Source of the DNA: Squalus acanthias
Taxonomy: Eukaryota
Direction of reading: 5' to 3'
Length of the DNA: 64,000 nucleotides
NCBI GenBank assembly: GCA_030390025.1
Contig: CM059431.1
Coordinates: 154,320,001-154,384,000, forward strand
Positions 3,983-54,813 of this stretch are shown here, piece by piece; the stretch's first letter is position 1; every line of letters starts with the position of its first letter. Below the pieces are notes generated by a model that did not search any database, was not told the DNA's origin, and saw only the letters and a list, made by a program, of their open reading frames with translations. Made by a program: the position numbers and the translations under genes.

Positions 3983-6382
3983 TCACAGGAAGTGATGCAA
4001 TAAAGTTCGAGTCACAGGAAGCTGTCTTGTGTTGCCACATTCTCCCCCCCCAAAAAGATTAGGAGGCCGGGATGCTCCCTCCATTTCGTAGCCGCTGGAC
4101 GAGGGAGAGCCGCACCCGTTTGGGTATCGTAGCGGTAGAGGGCCCCTAGCCCGTTTACCCGCCGCGGGCCGTGGACCAGAGTCCGAGTGATCCAGCCCGC
4201 TCTGTGAGGGGTCAGGACGATCCTGACTGTGTACTGGTGCCCGAACGGGTGTCAGGCAGGGCTGTGGCAGATCCGTTTCCGAGCGTACGGTACGGGGTGG
4301 ATCGTGGCTGCGCGTGCGAGCCCCGACGGGCTCATAGTCAGTCTGCCCCAGGTCGGCACGCTGGAGTGAGGTACCAGCCGGCGTCAGATGCAGATCGTGA
4401 TGAGAGGCACCTGGCGGGCCCAGAGATGTGCCTGGTACAATATCATCCCCTGGTGTCCCTCTATGTGTCGGCGGGCAGGGAGCCGGATCCTGCAATGACA
4501 CGGTAGATTCTCGACCGTCAGGATACCGAATATAGGCGTAGGTAGGGTTGACGTCAGAGAGCTCAACCTCATCTACCAGGGGGTCAGTTTTAGACGCCCG
4601 GACATATCTTCGGAGTAGCACTGGTCCCGGTGCAGTCAGCCACGACGGGAGAGATATCCCATAGGATGAGCGACGCTGAAATCGGAAGAACCGTTCATGA
4701 GACGTCGTATTTGTGGCGGTCGAAAGGAGGGACCATGTGGAGTGTAATGCGTCTGGGAGTACTGCTTCCCATTGCTGGTTGGGTAGGCCCCGAGATATCA
4801 AAGCCAGACGTACCGTATTCCAGATGATAGCGTTAAAACGCTCGACTTGCCCATTCCCGACCGGATGATAAGGCGTCGTTTTGCTGGCAGCAATACCCTG
4901 TTCCGAGAGATAGGCCTTGAGTTCTCCTGACATAAAAGAAGGGCCCCGATCCGAATGAACATAGGATGCCATGCCACAGAAAGCAAATACCTGCTCAAGG
5001 CAGCTGATAACCGTGGACGTCAGCATATTGGGGCAGGGAAAGGCAAACGGAAAACGGGAATACTCATCGACCATGGTCAATAGATAAGTGTTGCAAGTTG
5101 AAGAGGGCAACGGCCCCTTAAAATCGATGCTAAGCCGTTGCATTGGCTGGGTCGCATGTATGAGTATACCACTCGAGGGGCGGAAAAACCGAGGTTTCAA
5201 TTCCGCACAGACTCTGCAGTCCGAGCACATCTTCTTTACATCCCCGGTAGAGAATGGGAGATTTCGGGACCGCACGAAGTGTAGCATGCGAGTAACGCCC
5301 GGATGACACAACCCATCATGGATGTCTATGAGCGTAGAGGGTGCCATGGCGGAGCAGAATGCTCGTGTGAGGGTATCCGGAGCCACATTCTCCTTGCCAG
5401 GTCGATAGTGATTGGTGTAACCAAAAGAGGCCAATTCCAGCCGCCAAAGCTGGATTTTATTATTTTTAATTTCGGTCCGTTTTCGATTATCGAGCATGAA
5501 GGCGACCGATCGCTGGTCCGTGATTAAGGTAAAGTGCTGGCGAGCTAGGAGGTGACTCCACTTCCGTACTGCCTCTATGATGGCTGTAGCTTCTTTCTCG
5601 ACTGGAGGATAATGTAGCTCAGCCCCTTGAAAAGTGCTGGACAAAAATGCCACCGGACGACCTTCCTGATTCAGAGTGGCCGAGATCGCCACCTCCGAGG
5701 CATCACACTCAACGACAAAAGGAAGACTCTCATCGATGGAGTGAAGAGTCGCTTTCTCCAACTGTTTTTTCAGGAGGTTAAAGGCTGCAACAGCCGCTGT
5801 GTCTAGTGGGAATGTGCTGGCCTTCAGTAGAGGTTGGATTCGGTCCGAGAAGTTAGGAATCCATTTAGCATAGTATGCAAACAGGCCGAGGGCCCGGCGC
5901 AAGGAGGCCGGATTCTTAGATGGCGGGAGTTCTTGGAGTGGGCGAAGCCTTTCAGGGTCAGGTTTAATGATGCTATTGCCCACACAATAGCCAAGGATGT
6001 TGATGGTTGGTTGTGACTCAATGGATTTAGCCGCATTTAATGTCAAATTACGGTGCTGGAGTGCATCCCAAAATCGTTGGAGTTTGGCGTCATGTTCCCG
6101 CTGATTGCGACCTGCGACAGTAATATTGTCCAGATAAGGAAACGTATCCTTCAAGTCTTCCTGTTTGACCAGGTCATCCATTGCTCGCTGGAAGACAGCC
6201 ACTCCATTAGTGACCCCAAAGGGGAGGCGACGAAATTGATACAGCCGTCCATTGGCTTCAAAGGCCGTATAATGCTTGTCTGAGACCTTCAAGGGTACCT
6301 GATGATAAGCACTTTTTAGATCATATGTTGAGAACACCGTGTACTCAGCCAATTTATTAACCATATCATCGATGCGCGGCAA
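3983..6382 (-). CDS. Gypsy RT-RNase H-integrase (in frame with gag ORF after one TAA)
   Basis: DLKSAYHQ, LPFG, YLDN (YxDD site), ECDAS, TDQ, HPG...CRVC, IDFKGPLP, HSDRG, GNGQVER. Confidence 0.93.
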   Translation of the reverse strand: MPRIDDMVNKLAEYTVFSTYDLKSAYHQVPLKVSDKHYTAFEANGRLYQFRRLPFGVTNGVAVFQRAMDDLVKQEDLKDTFPYLDNITVAGRNQREHDAKLQRFWDALQHRNLTLNAAKSIESQPTINILGYCVGNSIIKPDPERLRPLQELPPSKNPASLRRALGLFAYYAKWIPNFSDRIQPLLKASTFPLDTAAVAAFNLLKKQLEKATLHSIDESLPFVVECDASEVAISATLNQEGRPVAFLSSTFQGAELHYPPVEKEATAIIEAVRKWSHLLARQHFTLITDQRSVAFMLDNRKRTEIKNNKIQLWRLELASFGYTNHYRPGKENVAPDTLTRAFCSAMAPSTLIDIHDGLCHPGVTRMLHFVRSRNLPFSTGDVKKMCSDCRVCAELKPRFFRPSSGILIHATQPMQRLSIDFKGPLPSSTCNTYLLTMVDEYSRFPFAFPCPNMLTSTVISCLEQVFAFCGMASYVHSDRGPSFMSGELKAYLSEQGIAASKTTPYHPVGNGQVERFNAIIWNTVRLALISRGLPNQQWEAVLPDALHSTWSLLSTATNTTSHERFFRFQRRSSYGISLPSWLTAPGPVLLRRYVRASKTDPLVDEVELSDVNPTYAYIRYPDGRESTVSLQDPAPCPPTHRGTPGDDIVPGTSLGPPGASHHDLHLTPAGTSLQRADLGQTDYEPVGARTRSHDPPRTVRSETDLPQPCLTPVRAPVHSQDRPDPSQSGLDHSDSGPRPAAGKRARGPLPLRYPNGCGSPSSSGYEMEGASRPPNLFGGGECGNTRQLPVTRTLLHHFL

Positions 6383-6385
6383 TGG

Positions 6386-8002
6386 TTATGCGTCCAAGTC
6401 CATATATTGATTGATGGTCTGTGAATAGTCAATGCACAGCCGTTTCTTGTGAGGTTGTAGAGGGTTCTGAACAATAACGACCTGGGCGCGCCATGGCGAT
6501 GAACAAGGCTCGATGATATCCTCTGCTAAAAGCCGATAAATCTCAGCCGCAATAAAAGACTGGTCTTCCTGACTGAAACGTCGTGACTTTGTTATAATCG
6601 GTTTGCATCGAGGAGGGATACTGGAAAACAGTGAGGGTTCATCCAGTGAAGCTGCTGACAATGCACAGAACGGTAATCGAGGTAGTATATTAGAAATAGT
6701 GAGTTCAGGTTTAGATCCGCCGAACTCAATGGTGAGCTTCTTATGCTGCTTCTGAAAATCCAGCTCTAAGATAAGATCACTACATAAGTCCTTGAGCACC
6801 AAAAGCCGGGTGGAGGGATACCTGTGACCATTAAGTCTTATTTCAACCCTACAAAAGCCAGAAATTCTGGTATTAAGTGATGACTGAGCCATCGCAACTG
6901 CCTGGTCCGATGGGAAAACATGTAGCTTTAACTCTGCAACAATCTGTTCCCTAATGAAACTATCAGTGCTACCTGAGTCAATTAAGGCATCTAAAGTATG
7001 TCCATTAATTGATGCTTTTGTAGCTGCATGGAATAGGTTCTGAGGACAAGCAGCAGTAATTGGTGTCGTTGCACAAAGAGTGGCTGAAACTCTAGGTGTG
7101 TTTCTTCGAGAGGAAGCACGATAGATTTTAGCCAGAACATCTTGATAGGCCCTTACCAGGGCAGTTCGGTAGGACTTAGCTTGATAAGCCCTCGTAGAGG
7201 CTCTTGATAGGCAAACCTTTGCAAAATGACCCTTTTTGTTGCAATGACTGCAAAACGCATTGCGAGCAGGGCAGAATTTCCGAGGGTGGAACTCATCACC
7301 ACAAAAGAAGCATTTCTTAGATTGCCAAGAGGCTGCCACAGTGGGGTCATCATCCTCTTCATCAGTGAAGTCATCAGATTGATCGTCAGGGATAAAGACC
7401 TCCCTAATAGAGTTCACCTGTGGCCTCTTAAATTGCCTGACTGTAGTTAAGGCAGTAGACCGAGGTCTGGGCACTGTATAAAGGTCTGCATTTCTTTTTG
7501 CCAGATCTAGAGAGCAAGCCATGTCATAAGCTCTCTGAAGCTCAAGTGTCTTACTTTCCAGTAGACGCTGGCGTATAAATGGGGAGGCAAGCCCGCAGAT
7601 GAAAGCATCACGGATCATTTCTTCACGGTACAGCTCAGCTGAGGCCGCCCGAAAGTTACAGTCCATACTAAGTCTGCGAAGCTCTTGGAGGAATTTATCA
7701 ATGGATTCCTCCGGCCCTTGTTGGGCTGTAGCAAGTAGATGTCTGGCATAGACCTCATTCGGTGTCTTATTATATAGTCTCTTAAGCTTCCGAATTGCCT
7801 CCTCGTAACTGTCCCATTCCTCCACATACTGAAATACATTCGGGGTGACACAGTTGATGAGTATCCGCAACTTTGAGTCATCATCAGCCTTAAAATATTC
7901 CAGAAAATTGTCAAACGTGCGATACCAGTGTTTCCACACCTTACCGGCTGCTGGGGTGTTTGGGTCCAAGTCAAGACGCGATGGTTTAAGGATGTTTTCC
8001 AT
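6386..8002 (-). CDS. Gypsy gag-protease-RT N-terminus (first part of one polyprotein)
   Basis: Two CCHC-like knuckles (CFFCGDEFHPRKFC, CSHCNKKGHFAKVC); protease ALIDSGS; SSPW...RLCIDY. Confidence 0.92.
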   Translation of the reverse strand: MENILKPSRLDLDPNTPAAGKVWKHWYRTFDNFLEYFKADDDSKLRILINCVTPNVFQYVEEWDSYEEAIRKLKRLYNKTPNEVYARHLLATAQQGPEESIDKFLQELRRLSMDCNFRAASAELYREEMIRDAFICGLASPFIRQRLLESKTLELQRAYDMACSLDLAKRNADLYTVPRPRSTALTTVRQFKRPQVNSIREVFIPDDQSDDFTDEEDDDPTVAASWQSKKCFFCGDEFHPRKFCPARNAFCSHCNKKGHFAKVCLSRASTRAYQAKSYRTALVRAYQDVLAKIYRASSRRNTPRVSATLCATTPITAACPQNLFHAATKASINGHTLDALIDSGSTDSFIREQIVAELKLHVFPSDQAVAMAQSSLNTRISGFCRVEIRLNGHRYPSTRLLVLKDLCSDLILELDFQKQHKKLTIEFGGSKPELTISNILPRLPFCALSAASLDEPSLFSSIPPRCKPIITKSRRFSQEDQSFIAAEIYRLLAEDIIEPCSSPWRAQVVIVQNPLQPHKKRLCIDYSQTINQYMDLDA

Positions 8003-9307
8003 GATGGGTGATTCCCTGGATCCTTAGTTCCGAGTTCGTTCAAGAAGTTTGAGTGCGAAGTTTTCCAAAGTTGATTAAATTGTCGTAAGAATGAGCCTTA
8101 CGCGTGGTGAACTTAAAGTAAGCTTTAATCAACTAAAAAAGGTGCTACATACAAAAGAGGTCTTACTCTATGCCTCTCCAGGATCCAACTGATCAGTCCA
8201 GTATTTATCCTGGACTAATCACAGGAAGTGATGCAATAAAGTTCGAGTCACAGGAAGCTGTATTGTGTTACCACAGTATTCTTTTAAGGGAATTGGTAAA
8301 AGACTTGAAGGGAAAATTTGCCGAAACAGCAGAAAGGACAGGGTATTCCTGACAAACCTGATTGAAATTTTTGAAAAGGTGATTAAAGCAGTGGACAGGG
8401 CAATGTCTATGTCTATTATTTAATCGAACTTAGAGTCATTGAGACATAACGGCACAGAAGGAGGCCATTAACCTGTCGAGTCCGTACCGGCTCTCTGTAG
8501 AGCAATCCAGATAGTCCATTCACTGCTCTATCAGCTAACCCTGCAAGTTTATTTCCCCCAAGTGCCTATCCAGTCTCCCCTTGAAATCATTGAGTTTCTC
8601 CGTTTACATCATTTCCGTCATAGCGAGATCCAGGTACTTACCACTCGCTGCATAAAAATGTTTTTCCTCACAATTCCCCTGTATCTCTTGCCCAAAACCT
8701 TAAATCTGTGTCCCCTTGTCCTTGTACCATCAACTCGTGGAATTAGTCTTTCCCCATCTAGCCTATCCAAACCCATCATAATCTTGTACACTTCCATCAA
8801 ATCACTCCTCAATATCCTTTGCTATAATGAAAACAAATCCAACTTCTCCACCTTGTCTTTTTAGCTAAGATCCTCATCCCCGGAACCATTCTAGTATATC
8901 TCCTCTGCATCCTCTCAAGGGCCTTCACATCCTTCCGAAAGTGTGGTGACCAGAACTGGACGCAATACACCAGTTGTGGCCGAACCAGCGCTTTATAAAT
9001 GTTCCATTAACTTCTCTACTTTTGTACTCAATACCTCTATTTATGAAGCCAAAGATCCCATATGCTTTGCTAACCACTCTCTCAATATGCCCTGCCACAT
9101 TCAGGAACCTATGCACATTAACTCCTAGGTCCCTCTGTCCCTGCACACTTTTTAAAACTGCCCCATTACATGTATATTGCCTCTCCCTGTTCCTTCTGCC
9201 AAAATGCATTACCTCACACTTCGCTGTGTTAAATTCCATCTGCCACTTGTTTGCCCATTCTGCTAGCCTTTCTCTGTCCTGCTGCAGTCGATTGGTATTA
9301 TCACAAG

Positions 9308-16645: not shown

Positions 16646-17180
16646 ATGGCTGAGAATCCGAATGAGAAATTCCGGGATAAAGCAGGATGTTTCGTGCGCT
16701 CTCTTCACTGTGACGAACGGTTTCATCCAAACGCTATGCCCGATGACCTCAGTGAACATCGGCACACGCGACTAGACGATCGAAAGCATTTTACTACAAA
16801 AAGATTTTTTAGAAAGGCGTCCTCTTTATCCAGCAAGAACAAGAGTCTTAATATAAAGTACTACAGGCAGAAGATCCCTGCAGGAATTGACTGGGGATCT
16901 GTGACATCTCGTGGCATGGTTAAAGGTATCAGTACAGAAATGGAACAAAGAGTTCCTACTGTGACCAAATCTCACACAAACATATTTACAAAGAACAGAC
17001 CTCTCATTTTCAAGCCAGAAATATTTAATTGGAAGCGAGAGGAACATCCTCCTACAGAAACACTGCTCAGAAAGTATACTTACAGTGACATCAGCCCCCA
17101 TCACAGAGTGAATGAAGATCTGCAACCGGGGCTGCAAGAAAAAGGAGCCTATGGATATGAAAGAAGTGAACACACATCCG
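16646..17180 (+). CDS. Candidate first coding exon (A1) of a host gene, putative NLR-like N-terminus
   Basis: Acceptor ttgttttag about 30 nt upstream; Kozak-like cATCATGG; 178 open codons + 1 nt; donor CCG|gtgaga (phase 1); no TE similarity recognised. Confidence 0.65.
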
Positions 17181-18502
17181 GTGAGATTACGCTCTCTTTT
17201 GAACTATATATCCGTCGGTATTGAAATTCAATCCATTGAACCTCAATCTGTGTTTTCAGTCTGTGTTAATTCTGTTATGGATTCTGACTTAGCTGAGACT
17301 GTTAACTCAGATCTAAAGCATTAACGTAAATGATGCTCTAAATGCTAAAGAAAGGCTCCGAATTCATGTCTTGGACATTTGGCAAACATACACTCAATCT
17401 CGGTTCAACCATGGCTGTCTGTTTGCTTTCTCCAGTAAAATGTCTTTGAAGCCTGAAGTTCTGGTTAACTCGGTCCATCTATCCGGCGTCCGTTAAAGGG
17501 TCCTCTGCTGACCGCCAACAAAATATAAGTTTAACATAATACTTACCTGAATGTGGAGCCAATAAGTTCAGGAGATCCCCACTTGGCACCATTTTAAAAC
17601 TACGGAGCCTTGCATGCCACTACTCTCGATTGTCACTCTCACTCTCCCGATGTTTGACGCTCTCGCTCTTCCACCAGTCCCACTCTCTCTCAGTCGACCA
17701 CTGCTCTCTCGCCCACGCTGGTCGTCCCTCCTTCACGATCGCATTGACCTCGCCCAGTCGCACCTTCCAGACCGTTGACATTAAAATCATGGTCACTAGG
17801 CAAGCTGCCTGTGGAGGCTCAGCAGGTGTTTGCACCTCCCCGGTATGCTCTGAACCAGACCAGAGACCAAATATCGGGTGGGTCTCAGGCCTACCCCTTA
17901 CGAGACAGGGATCGTTCTCAGCGTTAATTTTGGCTTCGTGTGATGTTGTAAAATCGGCGATAGCGAATCGAAATTACTAGCGAATGTAGTCAATGGATAT
18001 CAAAATCAGGATAGATGTAAAGACGGCTGCCCATTCAATTCAGCATGTTTTAATTTATCTCACAATAAGAACGTCACAATTACAGACCCTCCCCATTCCC
18101 AGTTCGCGCCAGCCAGCAAGAAGTAATTTCTAGGCCATTGTCTGTAAATTCACTGCTTGTGCTTTAAGCCTTCACCCTGCAGTGTGCTTATGATGATGCA
18201 TCGACTGCATACAGTAACCTGCCGTATATTCCAGTACAGTTCAGCCAGTCGATAAATAGCGTAATCATATAGACAAATGGCTTTATAGCTAATATATAGA
18301 GTGATCGACAGACAGAGAAACAGCGAGACAGGCAGAAATACAGTCAGACAGAAATATTCATAATGGTTATTAATTATTTGGCATTCCTCTTTGTTTTAAT
18401 GAATTATTTTGATGCAGTACTAGAGATTTCTAAGTACATCTTCCAAAGTATCCTTGTTTACTTCAACTACTCCGATATTTTTGTTCAACTTCTATTTTAT
18501 AG

Positions 18503-18672
18503 TGGATGATATTAATCGAGTTGGAACAACTGTGTCGACAGAAGCTGACACTAAACAATCTAAAGATACGGAATTGTATCGGGATGGAATTCCTGTAGCT
18601 ATTGAAGGATCTGTGGACGCTATAGGTGCAAATCAGAATCATAAAAATGCCGTCGCTCGGGTAGAATCTCAG
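18503..18672 (+). CDS. Candidate exon B1 (170 nt, phase 1 to 0), diverged death-fold/CARD-like half
   Basis: ttctattttatag|...|gtatgt; open frame (V)DDINRVG...TELYRDGIPVAIEGSVDAIG...VESQ. Confidence 0.72.
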
Positions 18673-19967
18673 GTATGTCTGACATAAATAGAACTGGACT
18701 TTTATTGACCTACGTAGCACGACTAGACTTCTATTGTTTAAATATTAGCTTTCGCGTACTTTATTTTCTGCAGTAGGCGAGTTGCACTGGGCAATGGAAA
18801 CACGGCCCACCGCTCCCTCTGCGACATTTTACATGAGGGAAAATGATGATTGCTGAGATTTACACTGCCTTACCTAATTTCCGCTCGGGTGCTTTCCAGT
18901 CGCTATTTTTGACCTATTTCTGCCCCGAACCTATTGCGGAGTGAAATCCGTGAATCGGAATCAGCACTGGTCTGAAAGTGGTATGTGGTGGACTTCCGTG
19001 TTCATCACCAACAGCCACTGCACTTTGATATTCAGAGATATCGGTTTTAGTGGAATATATGGTATATAATTGACGATATTCAGGAAGATCTGTTTTCGAC
19101 CCGTCCTCATTAAAGCTCAATGTTTCTTCTCCAGAATAACTTTGAACAAAGGTTCAATCATAGTTCTATTCCTTATTTTACCAGAATTAGGATACATTTT
19201 GTGGGCCGAGTAACTAAATAATCCCTAGGTCATGATCCGCTCCTGCATTCCCAACATCTTCCTCCTCACATCTAACCCCAACTCTTACATTGAATTTGAG
19301 GTTTCGCCTCGAATCAGAACACTCGCATTGTATCTGCATCAACTCCTCTATAACATAACTGTTAATTGCATTTCAATGCTCGCTCCAATCATCAGTCTTA
19401 TTCCGTTTCGCCCGCCAGTCTCCGATTAGCTTCGCGGTTCCACCATTCTTGGCTCCGGAATTTGTGCTCACGCATCGATTTTCACCGAGTTTTACTTTGA
19501 ATCATTGGAAGCGAAATGAACCTGTGAATTCAGCTTTCCTAATTCTACGGGATTTATATTTCTTGATTATGCTTCTGATGTCCCGTTCCTGTAAGTGCAG
19601 CGCTTCCCGCTCACCTCTGCTCAGTGCTGTTTCGTCAGATGTTTCTGAATTAGACGTTAAATCCACTCTCAATCTAAGGATACACGCGATTGCTCTCTTC
19701 AAGGCAAAATAAGCTTTTTGGGATCATATCGTCTCCAGTTTTAGGTAAATCATCTTATCAAAAAACTTTCTTGAATTTGATGTTTTCACTTTTGCTATTG
19801 TGATCCGCATCACGATTAATTTCTATTGTGTATGTTGTGCCTCCGCCCTGGGGAAACTAAAAGAATGAGTGTCCGTTGTTACACTGGATGTGAAATATGT
19901 TGCTTAGCCAGCTCAGAATCCGGAAAGTCAACCCTATTATATCCAGTCATATTCTTCTTATAATCAG

Positions 19968-20115
19968 AACCAACAGGAAATTGCTCCTACAGAAACAGTG
20001 CTCTGCACGGATACTTACAGTGCCATTAGAACCACAAAAATAATGAATGAAAATCAATTTCCGCGGCTGCAAGGAACAGGCGACAGCGGATATGAGAAAA
20101 CCGCACATTCATCCG
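19968..20115 (+). CDS. Candidate exon A2 (148 nt, phase 0 to 1)
   Basis: tcttcttataatcag|...|gtgaga; NQQEIAPTETVLCTDTYSAIRTTKIMNENQFPRLQGTGDSGYEKTAHSS; paralogous to the 3' end of A1. Confidence 0.7.
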
Positions 20116-20939
20116 GTGAGATTACTTTTTGTGCTGAACAGATATATCGGCCAGTATTTAAATTCAATCCAGTATAGCTCAAACAATGTTTTCATTCTCT
20201 TGTCATTCTATTATGCATTCCTACTTATCTGAGACAGTTATTTAATATCTATGCCAGTGAGCTAAATAATACTCTAAAGGCTACATAACGTTTGAGAATT
20301 GTGACATGTCCTTGTGCCAAATCTTAAACTCAACCTTGGTTCAACCGTGACTGTCCGTTTGCTTTCTGCGATAAACTGGCCGTGACGCCTGAAGTTCAAG
20401 TTAACTCGATCCACCTAACCGGCGGTCAGTAAATGATCCTCTGCAGAGCGTCACCAAATTATCAGGATTTTTTTCAAAAATGTAATTACCTGAATGTGGA
20501 GCGAATAAGTTCAAGAGTTCTCCTCCTGGCTAATTATTAAAACCACGGCACATTGCTAGTCACTACTCCCGATTACCTATCTCACTCTCTCGATCGTTGC
20601 CTCACTCCCTCTTCAATACGAACGTAACAGTTAGACCCCAACACCCATGTCCAGGTCGTGGCTGCCGGCATGATCCAATTGCTACGCCAGTGTCGATAAA
20701 TTTAGCCGATACATAAATAAAAAAGCAGATAGACAGCTAGCTACTGGTTAGAATCACAGACAGTCAGACAGACAGACAGATAGATAGATATATTGTTAAT
20801 GATTATTCATTCTTTGACTTTCCCTCTTCGCTAGATTAATTATTTTGATACAGAGTGCGAGATTTCTGAGTACCTCTTCCATATAATGCCTTGTTTCTTG
20901 TAGCTATCCGGTATTTGTTGTTCCACTTGTATTTTATAG

Positions 20940-21109
20940 TAACTGATAGTACTCGTGTTGGACCAACTGTTTCGGCAGACGCTGACACTCAGGAATCCAA
21001 AGATACGGAATTGCCTCGGGACAGAGTACCTGAAGCTGATGAAGAATCTGTGCCTGGTATCAGTGCAAATCTTCTTCATGGAAATATATTCACTCCGATA
21101 GATTCTGAG
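20940..21109 (+). CDS. Candidate exon B2 (170 nt, phase 1 to 0)
   Basis: ttgtattttatag|...|gtattt; open frame (V)TDSTRVG...NLLHGNIFTPIDSE; paralog of B1. Confidence 0.72.
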
Positions 21110-21142
21110 GTATTTTTGACGAAATTGAAATGAACTTATGTT

Positions 21143-21571
21143 ACATAGAAACATAGAAACATAGAATCTAGGAGCAGGAGTAGGCCATTCGGCCCGTCGA
21201 GCCTGCTCCACCATTCAATACGATCATGGCTGATCATCCAAATCCAGTACCCTGTCCCTGCTTTAATCCCCACAGTACACATATCCCACCCTACCCCCGT
21301 AACCCCACGTATTTAATTCCCCCTAACATATCCCATCACCCCACATATTTAATCCCCCCCTAACACTAAGGGTCAATTTTATCATAGCCAAATCAACCTA
21401 ACCCGCACATTTTTGGACTGTGGGAGGAAACCGGAGCACCCGGAGGAAACCCACGCAGACACGGGGAGAATGTGCAAACTCCACACAGACAGTCACCCGA
21501 GGTCAGATTCGAACCCGGGTCTCTGGCGCTGTGAGGCACCAGTGCTAACCACTATGCCACCGTGCTGCCCC
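21143..21571 (-). mobile_element. tRNA-derived V-SINE (HE1-like) with CR1-type tail
   Basis: Minus strand head gggcagcacggtggcatagtggttagcac...gggttcgaat; V-domain tgtgtggagtttgcacattctccccgtgtctgcgtgggtttcctccggg; CR1 3' UTR and (ttctatgt)n; absent from the paralogous intron. Confidence 0.9.
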
Positions 21572-22655
21572 TACGGTATTATTGCTTAGACTTCAATTGT
21601 TTAAGTATAAGCAGTAGCTTTTACGCTTTCTCATCCATTCCTTCCTGAAGTAGGCGAATTACACTGCGCCATAGTTACACGGGCCACCGCTCCGAAGTTT
21701 TATAAGAGCAAGAAGGATGATTGAGGAGATTTCCACATCCTTTCCTAATTTCCTCTCGGGTCCCTCTCAGACGCAAATTTTGAGCTATATTATTTACCCC
21801 TGAAACTAACGCAAAGTTCAGTCGGTGAACTGGATCCAGCACTGCTCTGCAAGAGCAAAGATTTGTTTTGCAAGGAATTAGCTACATCCTGTTGGCCGAG
21901 TACTTAAATATTCCCTTGGACATGCCCCTTCCTCCATGCCCAGCAGTTAGACTCCATCTGCTTCCTCAACTCTAAACCCATTTCCTACATTGCGTTTATA
22001 GCTTCGCCTCCAAGCAGAATACTCATATTGTTGTGCACCCTCGGCTCTAAACACTAACTGACATTTTGCATTTTAATAGTCTCTCCAACCTTTATCTTAT
22101 TCGGTTTCGCGCGCCACTCTCCGACTTGCTTCCGGTTCCATAATTTGGTTCCGTTATTTGGGGCCATGCATCTATTTGGATCGAGATTTAGTCTAATGCA
22201 TTGGATTGGAAATTTATCTATTCCCCCAGCTTTCCTATGTCTAGTGGATTTACATTTATTGATTATGCTTCAACTCTCCTGCACCTGTTTCTGGAGCGAT
22301 TCCTGCTCATCTCGGCTCAGAGCTGCCACATTATACGTGTGTGAATTTTAATTTACAAACTCTCTTATTCCGAAGTAATCGCTTTCTTAAAGAAAAAATC
22401 AGAGTTTTGGGGTCACCTCGGTTCCATTTTTAATTAATTCACTTTATCAAATAACCGTATTACCTTTGTTGATTTCGCTTTTGCGATTATGATGGGCACC
22501 ACAATAAATTTCAATCCTAGCTGGCTACCTCCGCCCTGGGGACTTTCATAGTATCATTGTCCGTTGCTGCAAAAGCTGGGGAAATTTGTGAATCACCAGT
22601 TCAGTAACCGGAAAGTCAGCTCTATTATATCTAATCATATTCTTGCTATAATCAG

Positions 22656-22779
22656 AATCAACAGGAAAATGCTCCAACAGAACCTTTGGTCAGCACGAAT
22701 ATTTACAGTGACATCAGCCGCACTCACATAAATGAAGATCTAGGAGCCGGCAGAAATTACAGAAACGCGCACACATCGG
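22656..22779 (+). CDS. Candidate exon A3 (124 nt, phase 0 to 1)
   Basis: tcttgctataatcag|...|gtaaga; NQQENAPTEPLVSTNIYSDISRTHINEDLGAGRNYRNAHTS; 24 nt shorter than A2 with frame kept. Confidence 0.7.
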
Positions 22780-23253
22780 GTAAGATTACTCTTTCACTTG
22801 AACTGATATATCCACCAATATTTGTATGCAATACAGTAAACCTCAATCTGTGTTTTAGTCTCTTCTCATTCTGTTGTGGATTCCGACTGAACTGAGACTG
22901 TTAGCTCATCAACAGCAGCAACAACAACGTGTATTTATATAACGCCTTTAAAGTAGTAAAACGTTCCAAGGCGCTTCACAGGATTGTTAACTATAACAGT
23001 GATGTAAATTATAAGCTCAATGCTATAGAAAGCTTCAGAATTCACGTCTCGTCCCTCTGCCTAATTTTGCACTCTCCTTTAATTCAAGGCGTTCCGCTTG
23101 CTTTCTCTGATAAAGTGTCTGTGACGCCTGAAGTTACGGTTAACTCGGTCTATCAAACCCGCTGTCGATAAAGGGACCTCTGCAGTCCACCAGCAAATGA
23201 AAGGTTCTAAGAAACAAAACATTCCTGTATGTAGAGCCAGTGACATCAGTAGT

Positions 23254-27559: not shown

Positions 27560-30500
27560 ATTCTTGATGGAGCGGATATGTGGTCGGAAGCTCATCTCAG
27601 CGTCAAATAGGACGTTAAGTTCGTGAACGGTCTGGTCCAGCCTGAGACAGTGGCAAGGGAGAGAGATAGATTTGATGGCTAAGGAAGGGAGTTTTGGCAG
27701 GGACCAAAGACAATAGCTTCGGTCTTTCCAATAAACTTCTGGAGGAAATTTCTGCTCATCCATTTCAGGATGTCGGACAAGTAGATTAATAACAGAGAGT
27801 TGATGGTTCGAAAGCGGTGGTGGTGAGGAGAGCTGGGTGCCGTCAGCTTACATGTGGAACATAACGTTTTGTTTTTGTATGAAACCTCCGGCTGGAATCA
27901 GATAAGATGAGAGATAGGAGGAAATCGAGGATAGGTCCATGGGGTATTCCAGAGTTAATGGTGCGAGAGCGGGAATCGAAGCCATTGCAGGTGTTCCTCT
28001 GACTAGGAATGGATAGATAAGAATTGAACTAGGCGAAGACAGGCCCACCCAGCTGAACCCGGGATGAGTGCCGCTGGAAGAGGATGGTGTGGTCAACCAA
28101 GTCAAAGACTTCAGACAGTTCGAAAAAGATGAGGAGCCAAGGTGGGTCACAAAATATGTTTTGTGTGAATTTGATAAGGGCCGTTTCAGAGCTGTGGTAA
28201 GTGCTGAAACACGTTTGCATTTGCGGGAAACTACGGCATGGATTTGGGAAGCGCAAACACGTTCATTGACTTTGGAGAGGGATGCGAATTTGAAGATGGG
28301 GCGGTAGTTTGCAAGGACAGAGGGGCCAAGGTAGGGTTTTGTGAGGAGTTGGTGAACATGGCGGATTTCATTTGGAGGGAGACAGTACCTGAGGAGAGGG
28401 AAACGTTAACAATATTTGCTAACGTTGGGTTCAGGAAGGGAAATTGTGTGGTCATCAGTTTAGTTGGAATAGGTTCGATGGAGGAGGAGGTGTTTCTCAT
28501 GGGTACAATGATCTCGGAGAGGTGATAAAGTGAGACAGGAGAGAAACTAGAGAAAGTTCGATTTCAGGGCCAGAGAAGTGGTGAACCTTTAGGGAAGTTT
28601 GGTATGGTGGGCTAGCGGAAGGGTGGGAAGAGGCTGAGGGACCTGAACGGATGGTCTCAACCTTAGTGACAAAGACGTCCATGAGATGCTCGCACATTTT
28701 GTTGGAGGTGAAGTTGGATGATACAGGGGAGAGGGGTTTACATAGAACAGTACAGCACAGTACAGGCCCTTCGGCCCTCGATGTTGTGCCGAGCATTGTC
28801 CGAGACCAAGATCAAGCTATCACACTCCCTATCACTCTGGTGTGCTCCATGTGCTTATCCAATAACCGCTTGAAAGTTCCTAAAGTGTCCGACTCCACTA
28901 TCACAGCAGGCAGTCCATTCCACACCCCAACCACTCTCTGAGTAAAGAATCTACCTCGGACATCCCTTCTATATCTCCCCCCATGCACCTTATAGTTATG
29001 CCCCCTTGTAACAGCTGCCTCTACCCGAGGAAATAGTCTCTGAACATCCACTCTATCTATCCCCCTCATCATCTTATAAACCTCTATTAAGTCGCCTCTC
29101 ATCCTCCTCCGCTCTAAAGAGAAAAGCCCCAACTCCCTCAATCTTTCCTCATAAGACCTCCCCCCCAAACCAGGCAGCATCCTGGTAAATCTCCTTTGCA
29201 CTCTTTCCAATGCTTCCACGTCCTTCCTATAGTGAGGTGACCAGAACTGCACACAATATTCCAAATGTGGTCTCACCAAGGTCCTGTACAGTTGCAGCAT
29301 AACCTCACGGTTCTTAAACTCAAACCCTCTGTTAATAAACGCCAACACACCATAGGCCTTCTTTACTGCTCTATCCACTTGAGTGGCAACCTTCAGAGAT
29401 CTGTGGATATGAACCCCCAGATCCCTCTGCTCCTCCACATTCCTCAGAACCCTGCCGTTGACCCAGTAATCCTTATTCAAATTTGCCCTACCAAAATGAA
29501 TCACCTCGCACTTATCAGGGATAAATTCCATCTGCCATTTTTCGGCCCAGTTCTGCATCCTATCAATGTCTCTTTGCAGCCTACAACTGCCCTCCACCTC
29601 ATCCACTACTCCACCAATCTTGGTGTCATCAGCAAATTTACTGATCCACCCTTCAGTCCCCTCCTCCAAGTCATTGATAAAAATCACAAACAGCAGAGGA
29701 CCCAGCACCGACCCCTGTGGCACACCGCTGGTAACTGGTCTCCAGTCCGAAAATGTTCCATCCACCACCACCCTCTGCCTTCTATGAGATAGCCAGTTAC
29801 TTATCCGATCGGCCAAATTTCCCTCTATCCCAGAACTCCTTACTTTCTTCATGAGACGACCATGGGGAACCTTATCAAACGCCTTACTAAAATCCATGTA
29901 TACGACATCAACTGCTCTACCTTCATCTACACACTTAGTTACCTCCTCAAAGAATTAAATCAAATTTGTTAGGCAAGACTTACCCTTCACGAATCCGTGT
30001 TGACTATCCCTGATTAAGTTGCCCCTTTCCAAATGGTCATAAATCCTATCCCTCAGGACCTTTTCCATTATCTTACCAACCACCGAAGTAAGACTAACCG
30101 GCCTATAATTACCAGGGTCATTCCTATATCCTTTCTTGAAGAGAGGAACAACATTCGCCACTCTCCAGTCCTCTGGCACCATCCCCGTGGACAGTGAGGA
30201 CCCAAAGATCAAAGCCAGAGGCTCTGCAATCTCCTCCCTTGCCTCCCAAAGAATCCTAGGATATATCCCATCTGGCCCAGGGGACTTATCGACCCTCAGG
30301 TTCTTCAAAATTGCTAAAACATCTTCCCTCAGAACATCTACCACCTCCAGCCTATCCACCTTTATCACACTCTCATCCCCAAGAACATGGCCCCTCTCCT
30401 CGGTGAACACTGACGAAAAGTATTCATTCATCACCTCTCCTATCTCTTCTGACTCCATGCACAAGTTCCCACTACTGTCCTTGACCGGCCCTACCCTCAC

Positions 30501-32930
30501 CCTGGTCATTCTTTTATTTCTCACATAAGAGTAAAAAGCCTTGGGGTTTTTCTTGATCCGACCCGCCAAGGACTTCTCATGCCCCCTCCTAGCTCTCCTA
30601 AGCTCTTTTTTTAGCTCATTCCTTGCTACCTTGTACCCCTCAATCGACCCAACTGAACCTTGTTTTCTCATCCTTACATACGCTTCCTTTTTCCTCTTGA
30701 CTAGACATTCAACCTCTTTTGTGAACCATGGTTCTCTCACTCGGCCATTTCCTCCCTGCCTGACAGGGACATACCTATCAAGGACACGCAGTAATTGCTC
30801 CATGAAAAAGCTCCACTTTTCGTTTGTGCCTTTCCCTGATAGTTTCTGTTCCCATCTTATACTCCCTAATTCTTGCCTAATCGCATCATAATTACCCCTC
30901 CCCCAATTATAAACCCTGCCCTGCCGTATGGCCCTATCCCTCTCCATTGCAATAGTGAAAGTTACCGAATTGTGGTCACTATCTCCAAAGTGCTCTCCCA
31001 CATACAAATCAAACACTTGGCCCGGTTCATTACCCAGTACCAAATCCAACGTGGCCCCACCTCTTGTCGGCCTATCCACATATTGTGTCAGGAAACCCTC
31101 CTGCACACACTGTGCAAAAACTATCCCATCCGAACTGTTTGACCTATAAAGGTTCCAATCAATATTTGGAAAGTTGAAGTCACCCATGACAACTATTCTG
31201 TGACCTCCACACCTATTCATAATCTGCTTTGCAATTTCTTCCTCCACATCTTTATTACTATTTGGGGGCCTGTAGAAAACTCCTAACAACGTGACCGCTC
31301 CTTTCCTATTTCTAACTTCAGCCCATATTACCTCAGACGGCAGATCCCCCTCGAACTGCCTTTCTGCCGCTGTTAAACTATCCTTGATTAACAATGCTAC
31401 TCCTCCACCTTTCTTACCAACTTCCCTACTCTTACTGAAACATCTATACCCCGGAACTTCCAACAACCATTCCTGTCCCTGTTCTAACCATGTCTCCGTA
31501 ATGGCCACCACATCGTAGTCCCAAGTACCAATCCACGCTCCAAGTTCTCCTACCTTATTCCGGATGCTCCTTGCATTGAAGTAGACACACTTCAAGCCAT
31601 CTTCCTGTCTGCCGGTACATTCCTGCGACCTTGATACCCTCCTCAGTACCTCCCTACACTCACCACTGGCTCGTGGACTACAGCCCTTTTTCCCATCCCC
31701 CTGACAAATTAGTTTAAACCCCCCCGAAGAGCCGTAGCAAATTTCCCTCCCAGGATATTGGTGCCCCTCTGGTTCAGGTGCAAACCGTCCTGTTTGTACA
31801 GGTCCCACCTTCCCCAGAATGTGCTCCAATTATCCACATAACTGAAACCCTCCCCCCTACACCATCCCTGCAGCCACGTGTTTATCTGCACTCTCTCCCT
31901 GTTCCTCAACTCGCTAGCACGTGGCACCGGCAACAAACCAGAAATTACAACATGGTTTGTACTGGCTCTCAGCTTCCAACCTAGCTCCCTAAATTCCTGT
32001 TTTAAATCCCCGTCCCTTCTCCTACCTATGTCGTTGGTACCGATGTATACCACGACTTGTGATTGTTCCCCTTCCCCTTTGAGGATTCTGAAAACACGTT
32101 CCGAGACGTCACGGACCCTGGCACCCGGGAGGCAACATACCATCCGTGAGTCTCTTTTGCTGCCACAGAACCTCCTATCTGTCCCTCTGACTATTGAGTC
32201 CCCAATAACTATTGCTCTCCTGCTCTCCCCCCTTCCCTTCTGAGCCACAGTGACGGACCCAGTTTAAGTAGACAGTTTGAAGTAGAGAAGAGAAGGCGGG
32301 GGAATATGTGCATTCGAGGATGAACCTGGAATATTGAGAAGTTTTGGCAGACGAGAGCACGGCCCGATAGTGTTTTTTGTGATCTATCCAAATCTGTCAC
32401 TGAAAGGCTTAACCAATTAAAGTCTGCCTCCTTTGGAATTAAGGGAGAGGAGTTGAGGGCTGCACCAGGGCAACGACCAGGTGGGGGAGAGAGTAAAGGT
32501 TTCAATAAGGACCCGGACATCAGTGGTGGAGATGAGTGTGTGATTGAGCACTTCGGTAGCTGCCGATATGTCATAGTGAATGGAGGGACAAAGGCTAGAC
32601 CGTTGGTTTATTAGAAGTGCATTTGTAAGTGAGATGGGGGAGAGTTATTTTCCAGAGGAAGACACAGAAGAATGAGGGGGTTGGGACTAGGGAGGTGAAT
32701 GTGAGTGGGGAGCGATGCAAGGAAGTGATCTGAGATGACCTAATGTGTGATTGACGCAATTTATGCAGAGAGGTAACGAGATGGAAATGTCGAGGGTCTG
32801 GCCGTAAATATCGGTAGGACAGATTATAAGGGGAAAGAGTTTAATGGAGGATGGGGGTCAGTGAACTCAGAAGAGAAAGTTCATGATGAGTTGAGATAGA
32901 GGTTGAAATCACCAAGTATAATAAAACTCA
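27560..32930 (-). mobile_element. Degenerate L2 LINE, split by the young CR1 at 28741-32261
   Basis: STYHSSETALIK, FDLVDHTIL, PIPTKLMT motifs; homologous to 58555-60410. Confidence 0.85.
28741..32261 (-). mobile_element. Young CR1 LINE: ORF1 esterase half + complete ORF2 (APE-RT) + 3' UTR
   Basis: ORF1 IVIGDSIVRG...DGLHLN; ORF2 NARSI, ITETW, MGDFN, SDH, QGSVLGP, FADDTK; TSD gttta (28736-28740 / 32262-32266). Confidence 0.96.
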
Positions 32931-50556: not shown

Positions 50557-50725
50557 AAAATACATATACTAGAATCTTACTAATGTTGGCGAGCTACACT
50601 GATATCCAGCTGCGGAGCATTATAGAGCGCTACCGTCAGAGACTAGAACATTCCATTGAAGAATTCGTGGAGGACGTTAGTCATCGCTACTAGAAGCAAA
50701 CGTGTTTAATGAAACAGACCATAAG
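50557..50725 (+). pseudogene. Candidate exon C: death-fold/CARD-like first half, with 1-nt frameshift
   Basis: tttacatcttgacag|...|gtatgc; (E)NTYTRILLMLASYTDIQLRSIIERYRQRLEHSIEEFVEDVS-fs-SLLEANVFNETDHK; 169 nt versus 170 for B1 and B2. Confidence 0.75.
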
Positions 50726-52281
50726 GTATGCTACATATATTTTGGAATCGTGTAGTGTTAAATGAGTTAGACGATTGCCTGTTTTAATTAAATTCATTTC
50801 GAGGAAGCCAACGATATAAACAGTGCGCAAAGCTCTACTGGTTTAACTTCAATACTGACGCTGAAATTTTGACCAGTTTCAGTATAAACATTGTTTAAAG
50901 TGTTCTTCTGTGAAATCTCTCTGATAAATTAATTTGTTGAAAATTTCAATTAATATATTATTTAATCAGAGAACAGCATCTCCTGGTATAACCAGGAGTT
51001 CATTATGACAATGGCCTACGTCCTACTATCATAAGTTGCTTCATCAATGAACTTCCCACATAAGATCAGAATTTGGGCTTTTTGCTGATGAATGTAATTT
51101 TCAGCTCCATTCACAACTCCTCAGTCAATGACGCAGTCCATGCCCGCATGCAACAGCACCTGAACAATATGCAGGTTTGGGCGGAAAAATTCAAGTAATA
51201 TTCATGTCACACAAGTGCCAGGCGATATCCATCTCCAAAAATAAATTCTCTAAACACCTCCCCTTGAACGTCACTGGCATTGCCATCGACGAATCCGCAA
51301 CCATCAATATGCTAGTGTCACCTCTAAACCAGCTCTGCCAAGCGTCTTTAAGTTAAGGTAATTCCAGTGACCGTATTTCTGCAGGCATACGGTTTGCTGC
51401 AGTTTCTGAAAGCGGACATAGATGGCATCCTATACATGGAACAATTAATCCAAATTGCAGGATTGCAAGGAACACGCTAAGGCACATTGCAATGAATAAT
51501 TAATAAGAAACCACTAGCACCGCAAGCATCACGGGTTAGCAGAGCATTCCCAGTGGAAATCGTAGAGTTAGACAAAACTAGTAACAGCCCCATATATCTA
51601 ATCTCAGGAGAAGAAATTTACTGTCAAATCAAAGCTAAAGTGTCGGTCACGGCAGAGAGTTTCTGTTTGTTATTTATCAAAGCAAGCGTGCGTTCCCATT
51701 AAATTATGCGATTGGTGCGAGTCACTGCCGGTGGAACGAATTTATAGAACGTTTTACTCAACATATCCAAGTCGTTGCTTCGATTTCTCTTCTCCTTCGA
51801 ACTTCAACGCATGACTACTTCTCTCTGCCTTTCAAAAACTTTCCCTGCCATTGTTACTACTTCTAATTTACAACCGCACACAATCTTCATTATTTCACGT
51901 GTCGCCAAGAACTCGCAAAATTCATCCAGTCCATGGATTACGCAAACTTCTGCCTTGACTCCAGGAGAGCTCAGGTCACGCCCCTTCCTCGGCCCAATGC
52001 ACAAGGAGATCAACAATACCGGCCACTTATGTTAAGACTGCCATATTGTCACATAAAAGAATCGCTTGTCTCAACTGTGATGTCTATCTGCTTCCTTTTC
52101 CAATACTTCCTAGAGTTACGTAACACATATATTAATAAAGTATAGTGAATACATCTGGTTCGCTGAAGGCACCGATAGTCCTGTGATGTGCTAGGAAGTT
52201 ATGATACAGTAACAGCTATGTGGCTTACGTAAGGGCAGGGCTAATAGCTGGGAGCTAAAATGACCTGTTACACAAGATAAT

Positions 52282-54614: not shown

Positions 54615-54813
54615 GAAATCAGAACATTTGCTGAAAGTGAGCGCAAAAACGAAGCCTCCCAACTCATTTTCGATACCGTGCTGAAAAAGGGAGCTCGGGT
54701 GAAAAGTATAATGTGGAACATATTTCTTCGACTGCAGAATACAAAACCCAAGATGAACGCGATATTGTTGGAGATACAGAACAGAGGCACAGGGGCAGAA
54801 AATGATCTAGAAG
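54615..54813 (+). CDS. Candidate exon D: death-fold/CARD-like second half (phase 0 to 1)
   Basis: ttttttag|...|gtaggt; EIRTFAESERKNEASQLIFDTVLKKGARVKSIMWNIFLRLQNTKPKMNAILLEIQNRGTGAENDLE; contains a CARD-like helix 4-5 pattern (L..V..KG). Confidence 0.78.

Follow-up and report, generated by a model that had tools for sequence, protein, structure and literature searches.

CARD duplication has produced CARD16, CARD17 and CARD18, which are CARD-only regulators encoded by separate genes and made of complete, folded CARDs. In zebrafish, NLR-B30.2 genes (NLR-C) encode N-terminal peptide repeats of about 30 amino acids (aa) that are specified by exons, vary in number, are exclusive to that NLR type and have been shuffled among groups, as far as the accessible part of the report describes them (Howe et al., 2016, PMC4852459). 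In the whale shark, an NLRP-related family has expanded, according to the accessible part of its description (PMC8455134). Here we analyze a 64-kb stretch of Squalus acanthias DNA (154.32-154.384 Mb of C7, the contig that carries it), hereafter the window. It is mostly transposon sequence and contains the front end of an NLR gene on its plus strand, with a first coding exon (E1), two pairs of small exons (B1 and A1, B2 and A2) and two exons, C and H2, that encode the halves of a divergent CARD.

An earlier note on this DNA, made from the sequence alone, had proposed that B1 and B2 are copies of the CARD-like half exon turned into a hydrophilic repeat, and had not recognized the architecture as one described before; the zebrafish repeats, as they appear in the part of the paper at hand, are a published analogue (PMC4852459). 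Our analyses lead us to favor, on balance, the reading that B1 and B2 are members of an exon family that is specific to this lineage and arose once from C, the exon of the first CARD half, and that the B-A units are translated as a disordered N-terminal spacer of variable length.

Homology of the B exons to a CARD half exon

The coordinates, length (170 nucleotides, nt) and phase (1 to 0) that had been claimed for B1 and B2 were recovered unchanged. Both exons match C in phase, and also in length after the repair of a single base, the position of which was located with three paralogous C exons. In the shuffle test, the exon borders fixed an ungapped register beforehand, the break in C was written as XX, and 500,000 shuffles were made. 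B2 and C share 15 identities at 54 scorable positions; the shuffles had a mean of 3.4 (standard deviation 1.8), and a fraction of 4e-6 reached the observed identity. The earlier note, with a gapless alignment of the same pair, had counted 16 identities in 57 positions. The BLOSUM62 sum of the same pair had a z of 6.7 and was reached by none of the 500,000 shuffles. For B1, with nine identities to C, z was 4.6 and the shuffle fraction 2.8e-5, so that the check by shuffled alignment suggested in the note was significant for both exons.

Independent queries returned the same relationship. Paralogous C-type exons, used in tblastn, matched the two B exons of the window with E values of 7e-4 and 0.013, and the B exons of other genes with values down to 7e-8. 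A profile of 22 B exons aligned end to end with a profile of 17 C exons in hhalign (55 columns, 96.5% probability, E 7.5e-10). When the B profile was searched against a library of 1.84 billion protein representatives, three proteins were found at E values up to 0.001. The best of them (E 1.1e-9) was a catshark tandem-CARD protein, matched in its C-type halves; the other two were unrelated repeat proteins. In a phylogenetic tree, B and C fell on opposite sides of one branch with a support of 100/100, and a single origin of B is therefore the simplest reading. These comparisons, all of sequence, confirm in our judgment that B is homologous to C, which encodes the first half of a divergent CARD split over two exons. 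B belongs to the C exon family by homology in the register defined by the exons, and by equal length and phase.

We accept from sequence evidence that C and H2 together are a divergent CARD, one that is not a member of the family by the Pfam criterion. The Pfam searches speak against the assignment: no C exon reached the cut-off of PF00619 (23.9 bits), C exons were absent among the 66 Pfam CARD hits of a whole-genome scan, and the model had no match on the catshark tandem protein. Six of the 17 C exons matched the model at profile positions 2-33 (best E 0.012; the first member scanned scored 15.9 bits), and none of the eight second halves did. Because the Pfam model stayed under its cut-off, we built a local profile and hidden Markov model (HMM) from 20 CARD exons of the same genome that score above it. 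In hhalign, C columns 20-56 aligned to CARD columns 1-37 (P 2.7e-4) and H2 columns 1-53 to CARD columns 36-85 (P 2.9e-5); these two matches are colinear and adjacent. All six conceptually spliced C+H2 units scored 14.3-25.4 bits with the 20-CARD HMM across the exon junction (HMM positions 2-75), and the maximum of 1000 shuffles was 9.7 bits.

The UniRef name of the catshark homologue is 'CARD domain-containing protein'. An Atlas model of one catshark C+H2 unit had template modeling (TM) scores of 0.66-0.72 to CARD-bearing clusters and of 0.89 to the head of a cluster automatically named 'NLRP3-like'. Both values serve as leads only, the model of the whole protein being poor, with a predicted local distance difference test score (pLDDT) of 0.61. 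For the C half alone, AlphaFold2 with the 17-sequence alignment gave a pLDDT of 89.1 and helices at residues 2-11 and 15-46.

Other assignments were considered for the two exons. In Pfam searches with the seven window exons taken singly, nothing was found but a weak Annexin match on C. This match was present in 13 of 17 C exons (best E 6e-4, under the cut-off), and annexin A8 appeared in a PDB search with an E value of 0.05. We discarded annexin, since a CARD is indicated by the second half, by the colinear alignment to CARDs and by the NLR setting. The PDB profile searches with C and H2 found no CARD. Their matches of H2 to designed pentatricopeptide repeat proteins were also rejected; their scores add up over the repeats, and no stretch is significant by itself.

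Origin, reading frame and fold of the B-A units

A search of the same genome found 24 B-type matches, of which 23 are stop-free; every one lies within one NLR cluster at 154.3-158.2 Mb of C7. The 24th match (E 2.4) was left out, and 23 distinct copies were examined. C-type matches numbered 137. In the nine gene regions read, B and A exons alternate between E1 and the CARD in one to four B-A units, and the variation in repeat number among NLR paralogs that the earlier note had anticipated is thus present. One paralog (cV) has the order E1, three B-A units, C, H2 and a NACHT exon open for 583 aa. Another locus (L027) has a plain order without B-A units: E1, a C-like first half, a CARD second half and a 577-aa FISNA/NACHT frame.

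The statement that B exons are followed by A, and not by the second CARD half, was right, and the description of A as unrelated was not: A duplicates the final 148 nt of E1 (match to 17033-17179 in tblastn, E 4e-8; repeat family D4). The acceptor AG of A is part of an in-frame CAG codon, located 148 nt from the donor and kept in the E1 copies of L022, L023 and L047. A2, the short form, is 83-87% identical in nucleotides to the A copy that precedes exon C in other genes. In the window, the segment recurs about every 2.7-2.9 kb with an identity of 68-82% and spacings of 2437-2943 nt (repeat search, families D1-D5 and D7-D9), and a genomic unit of 2.9 kb that was duplicated in tandem accounts for the B-A array.

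E1 ends in phase 1, B runs from 1 to 0, A from 0 to 1, C from 1 to 0 and H2 from 0 to 1, and the NACHT exon starts in phase 1. A B-A unit measures 318 or 294 nt (98-106 aa) and a C-H2 unit 369 nt. By this symmetry of phases, any number of B-A and C-H2 units joins in frame. B1 groups with internal B exons of other paralogs (eight members, support 100/95), and B2 with the 'last' B subtype (seven members, support 99/98). Since both subtypes are common to other paralogs, the two-unit array is older than the gene duplications.

A series of steps could have produced this arrangement. The canonical order of the subfamily is E1, CARD half 1, CARD half 2 and FISNA/NACHT. A tandem duplication of about 2.9 kb, from inside E1 to beyond C, would have put a spare C after E1 and before a duplicate of the E1 tail, and the in-frame CAG of the E1 coding sequence would have become the acceptor of exon A. 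Without a second half beside it, the spare half-CARD would have been unable to fold, and may then have lost much of its hydrophobic core and gained proline and glycine. Unequal crossing-over can change the number of B-A units without breaking the gene. Selection, as the comparison of copies shows, has kept the splice sites, length and open frame of B. The units would finally be translated as an intrinsically disordered spacer of variable length before the CARD, possibly with short conserved S/T-rich motifs (T9, S11, S19, S36).

The evidence for translation is the state of the B copies, which were retrieved by protein similarity, a procedure that favors intact ones. Exactly 170 nt were found in 21 of 23 copies; of the remaining two, the first lacks 3 nt and the second has a rearranged 5' end. 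The AG acceptor, the GT donor and the open frame are each kept in 22 of 23. Among the 21 full-length copies, one contains a stop, versus 11.6 (standard deviation 2.3) expected from random substitutions at 20-33 changes per copy from the consensus, in a simulation that treats the copies as independent despite their common ancestry. The other two frames are open in two and in none of the 21. No indel was found in these 21 exons, versus 2.3 and 2.0 events per 170-nt stretch of upstream and downstream flanking intron, in alignments that can overcount indels; at least one indel was present in 21 of 21 upstream and 18 of 21 downstream introns. Judged from the sequences, the reading frame of B is clearly protected. 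The conservation of splice sites, length and frame across the family argues that B is translated, or was until recently.

It is possible, though on the unlikely side, that segmental duplication left B and A behind as by-products outside the normal mRNA, that E1 is joined to C with the additional exons skipped or rarely included, and that the intact look of the exons comes from recent gene duplication and gene conversion in a birth-and-death family. E1 and C have compatible phases, and splicing could pass over every B-A unit. The exons are modestly less diverged (median p 0.25) than their flanking introns (0.32 upstream, 0.265 downstream). The ratio of nonsynonymous to synonymous differences per site (pN/pS) is 1.08 in B, versus 0.57 in C and 0.79 in H2, and a value near one is equally expected from neutral decay. 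Pseudogenes are many in the family; about 24 NACHT exons are closest to it, and 9 of them are stop-free. No annotated protein with B-type or E1-type sequence was found, either among the 1.84 billion representatives searched with the B profile or in word-based searches of longer proteins with the B and E1 alignments. A word-based search of longer proteins with exon C also found nothing, and nothing usable came from searching the Atlas with B2. The scarcity of stops, the lack of indels beside indel-rich introns, and the retention of both splice sites stand against a by-product. So do the two B subtypes, which hold position-specific places across paralogs and indicate arrays that predate the gene duplications.

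The compatible phases of E1 and C, the pN/pS value and the lack of an annotated protein with B also weigh against a translated spacer, as do the sampling of the copies and the independence assumed in the simulation, and the condition of the genes adds to them. A search of sequencing runs with E1 returned no RNA run that contains it; three small runs of the same species shared almost none of its words. C in the window lacks one base relative to the three paralogous C exons, at a gap inside ...GTCA-TCGCT.... The NACHT pieces downstream start about 19 kb past the end of the window and belong to the sole NACHT exon there (L037-L038, C7:154402900-154409400), which is split after about residue 286 by a 4.8-kb element like a long interspersed nuclear element (LINE) with a 1004-aa open frame, and is frameshifted near its 3' end. 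In paralog cV, ATA replaces the start ATG. Paralog cVI has one B with a stop, another B without a donor, a frameshifted A and two stops in NACHT. Among the genes with B-A units that we examined, none was fully intact.

By the lost base in C and the split NACHT exon, the gene copy of the window is probably a decaying pseudogene, although its E1, B1, A1, B2, A2 and H2 remain open; the B-bearing NLR family is a birth-and-death family. For the family, the sequences give good support to the claim of a half exon of the death fold that was duplicated and became a hydrophilic module in tandem, together with its predicted lack of structure and its N-terminal position.

The reading of the B-A units as a translated spacer includes the loss of the CARD fold in B. 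Columns that are at least 70% hydrophobic number 21 of 56 in C and 11 of 56 in B. The replacement of hydrophobic positions that the earlier note had seen in the two window copies holds throughout the family: nine of the 21 hydrophobic columns of C are less than 30% hydrophobic in B (L7G, L8P, M9T, Y13D, I16T, L18Q, I21D, I22T and F36S), with a concentration at residues 7-22. Hydrophobic residues make up 27% of B versus 38% of C, and proline plus glycine 9.6% versus 1.0%. The disorder prediction came out as the note had expected: AlphaFold2 with the 22-sequence B alignment gave a pLDDT of 55.5 and no secondary structure. B thus has neither the hydrophobic core nor the helical propensity of a functional CARD half. 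Near-invariant columns are T9, S11, S19, E23, E34, S36 and N43. In these models and comparisons, B looks like a translated yet unfolded spacer.

A more active role, in which the B-A array would be a functional sensor or regulator, acting as an expandable bait for pathogen proteases or as a half-CARD cap that tunes CARD polymerization, appears quite unlikely to us. By analogy it has precedents in NLRP1 and CARD8, in what the available parts of the literature report (PMC7857732, PMC10249858). It would also fit the predicted disorder of the region, a pN/pS of one or more with the frame kept (1.27 in the second half of B), the differences in B-A copy number between paralogs, and the several S/T/E columns that are nearly invariant. 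NLRP1 and CARD8 need a FIIND and a C-terminal CARD, and neither turned up in the loci read, where no FIIND-directed search was made; the CARD of the shark genes is N-terminal to NACHT. The specific form of this idea, a host module in which copy number and fast-changing sequence set the threshold of CARD polymerization or offer protease bait sites, we regard as very unlikely. If it were true, a shark NLR subfamily would have independently invented a 'disordered tripwire' by recycling part of its own signaling domain.

That the likeness of B and C is mere chance between two charged, E/D-rich exons of the same length and phase is almost certainly wrong: the ungapped nucleotide identity is just 42-46% and the B profile has no significant direct match to the CARD profile (hhalign, P 0.37), but the shuffles, tblastn, hhalign and the library search, with independent queries, all give one end-to-end register, which already contradicts it.

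The window gene and its cluster

The exons of the NLR front end and the tandem duplication are listed in Table 1. E1 has an open frame with an in-frame stop immediately 5' of the ATG and encodes a polar N-terminal peptide of 178 aa. Its methionine is kept in 11 of 12 paralogous copies. The same genome has 32 E1-type matches, some of them 7-17 kb upstream of NACHT exons. All seven exons from E1 through H2 have AG acceptors and GT donors as applicable. Both B exons are preceded by ...ttttatag and followed by gtatgt or gtattt, and their sole open frame is the one that gives phase 1 to 0. In paralogs, C measures 170 or 173 nt, versus 169 nt in the window. The gene belongs to the NLRs by a NACHT exon downstream in the same orientation.

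Table 1. Features of the NLR front end in the window (positions counted from the first letter of the window)
Feature	Position	Strand	Description
E1	16646..17180	+	first coding exon; ATG at 16646; 535 nt; ends in phase 1; gt donor
B1	18503..18672	+	170 nt; phase 1 to 0; 'internal' B subtype (…ANQNHKN…VE.Q)
A1	19968..20115	+	148 nt; phase 0 to 1; copy of the E1 3' tail (17033-17180)
B2	20940..21109	+	170 nt; phase 1 to 0; 'last' B subtype (…ISANLLH…PIDSE); nearest copy to C
A2	22656..22779	+	124 nt; phase 0 to 1; short A subtype, preceding the CARD in several paralogs
C	50557..50725	+	CARD first-half exon (helices H1-H3 and, N-terminal to them, an extension of 19 aa); 169 nt, frame switches
H2	54615..54813	+	CARD second-half exon; 199 nt; phase 0 to 1; intact; matches the second half of a paralog in tblastn (E 1.5e-25)
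Tandem genomic duplication	17026..23204	+	[E1 tail or A]-intron-[B]-intron; two full units and a partial third

The segment 51191-51471, between C and H2, has a conserved counterpart at the equivalent place of one sub-array (L018), with 61% over 46 aa in one frame. In the window it runs into a stop and has no donor, and is probably conserved intron rather than exon. The stretch 51384-51480 had been a candidate for the CARD second half or for a 70-nt repeat exon and was rejected; the real second half is H2, and the sequence at 51.2-51.5 kb is probably a conserved intron piece that the window shares with one sub-array. Among the transposon sequences on the minus strand of the window, 3983-8023 has gag-pol-like open frames of 800 and 545 aa (a retroelement), and 28812-32263 has LINE-like open frames of 380, 624 and 184 aa.

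Three arrays elsewhere on C7 (153721044-153793185; 154613169-154704134, including L028 at 154628001-154638000; and 155454220-155505610) contain about 12-15 complete C+H2 units, in frame and spaced every 4-9 kb or so. A stop-free NACHT exon lies about 5-12 kb after each array (153798536, 154712648 and 155517705). These could be NLRs with many tandem CARDs, or sets of alternative cassettes. E1 is itself tandemly duplicated before a single B in some places, each copy with an ATG: two copies in L029 (C7:154865069 and 154866711) and three at C7:155664467, 155666110 and 155667755. The weakest B-like match, the one left out of the B set (C7:154554897-154557003), lies 2 kb upstream of the only Pfam CARD match of the cluster (a second half, E 4) and could be a less diverged split CARD.

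Comparison with known systems

The genes described here and the elasmobranch 'NLRP3-like' expansion have in common the large FISNA/NACHT exon, a CARD-type front on small exons, a lineage-specific expansion and many pseudogenes. The accessible portions of the elasmobranch NLR sources make no mention of B-A repeats or of a half-CARD origin (PMC8455134). The catshark protein, Scyliorhinus torazame GCB66031.1, carries this divergent CARD (C+H2) three and a half times in tandem, like the units of the shark genome studied here. It has no B-type or A-type segment, and is a gene model rather than a verified transcript. As the genes studied here show, elasmobranch NLR genes owe much of their diversity to unequal crossing-over at the level of exons, which affects E1, B-A units and whole CARD units.

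CARD16, CARD17 and CARD18 resemble B in being duplicated CARD sequence near its parent; B differs from them in being half a CARD, in the same gene, and in being predicted to be unfolded. As in the B-A units, the 'tripwire' regions of NLRP1 and CARD8 are disordered, fast-evolving stretches in an inflammasome-type sensor, an analogy in kind only (available parts of PMC7857732 and PMC10249858). NLRP1 and CARD8 depend on FIIND autoprocessing and a C-terminal CARD, by what those parts state, and that architecture was not seen in the shark loci read.

In the papers that could be searched, we found no account of a half-CARD exon turned into a repeat. The B exons would offer a clean, datable case of the conversion of a folded-domain exon into a disordered repeat, by partial-gene duplication and phase symmetry, after which selection would have preserved the frame alone. 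If the repeats are expressed, the variable number of units would be a testable parameter of NLR regulation.

The closest analogue is the zebrafish NLR-B30.2 family, compared here by description and not by sequence, and within the accessible part of its report (PMC4852459). Common to both are repeats encoded by exons, in variable number, placed before a death-fold domain and FISNA-NACHT in an expanded fish NLR family. In both, the repeats have spread by exon shuffling and are restricted to one NLR type. The shark genes thus have the variable N-terminal exon repeats of the zebrafish type and lack its motif of about 30 aa on one exon, their unit of 98-106 aa being divided between two (170 nt plus 148 or 124 nt). 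For the zebrafish motif no origin is given in that part of the paper, whereas both parents of the shark unit are traceable in the same gene. The shark B-A units offer a concrete example of how N-terminal exon repeats like those of zebrafish NLRs may originate.

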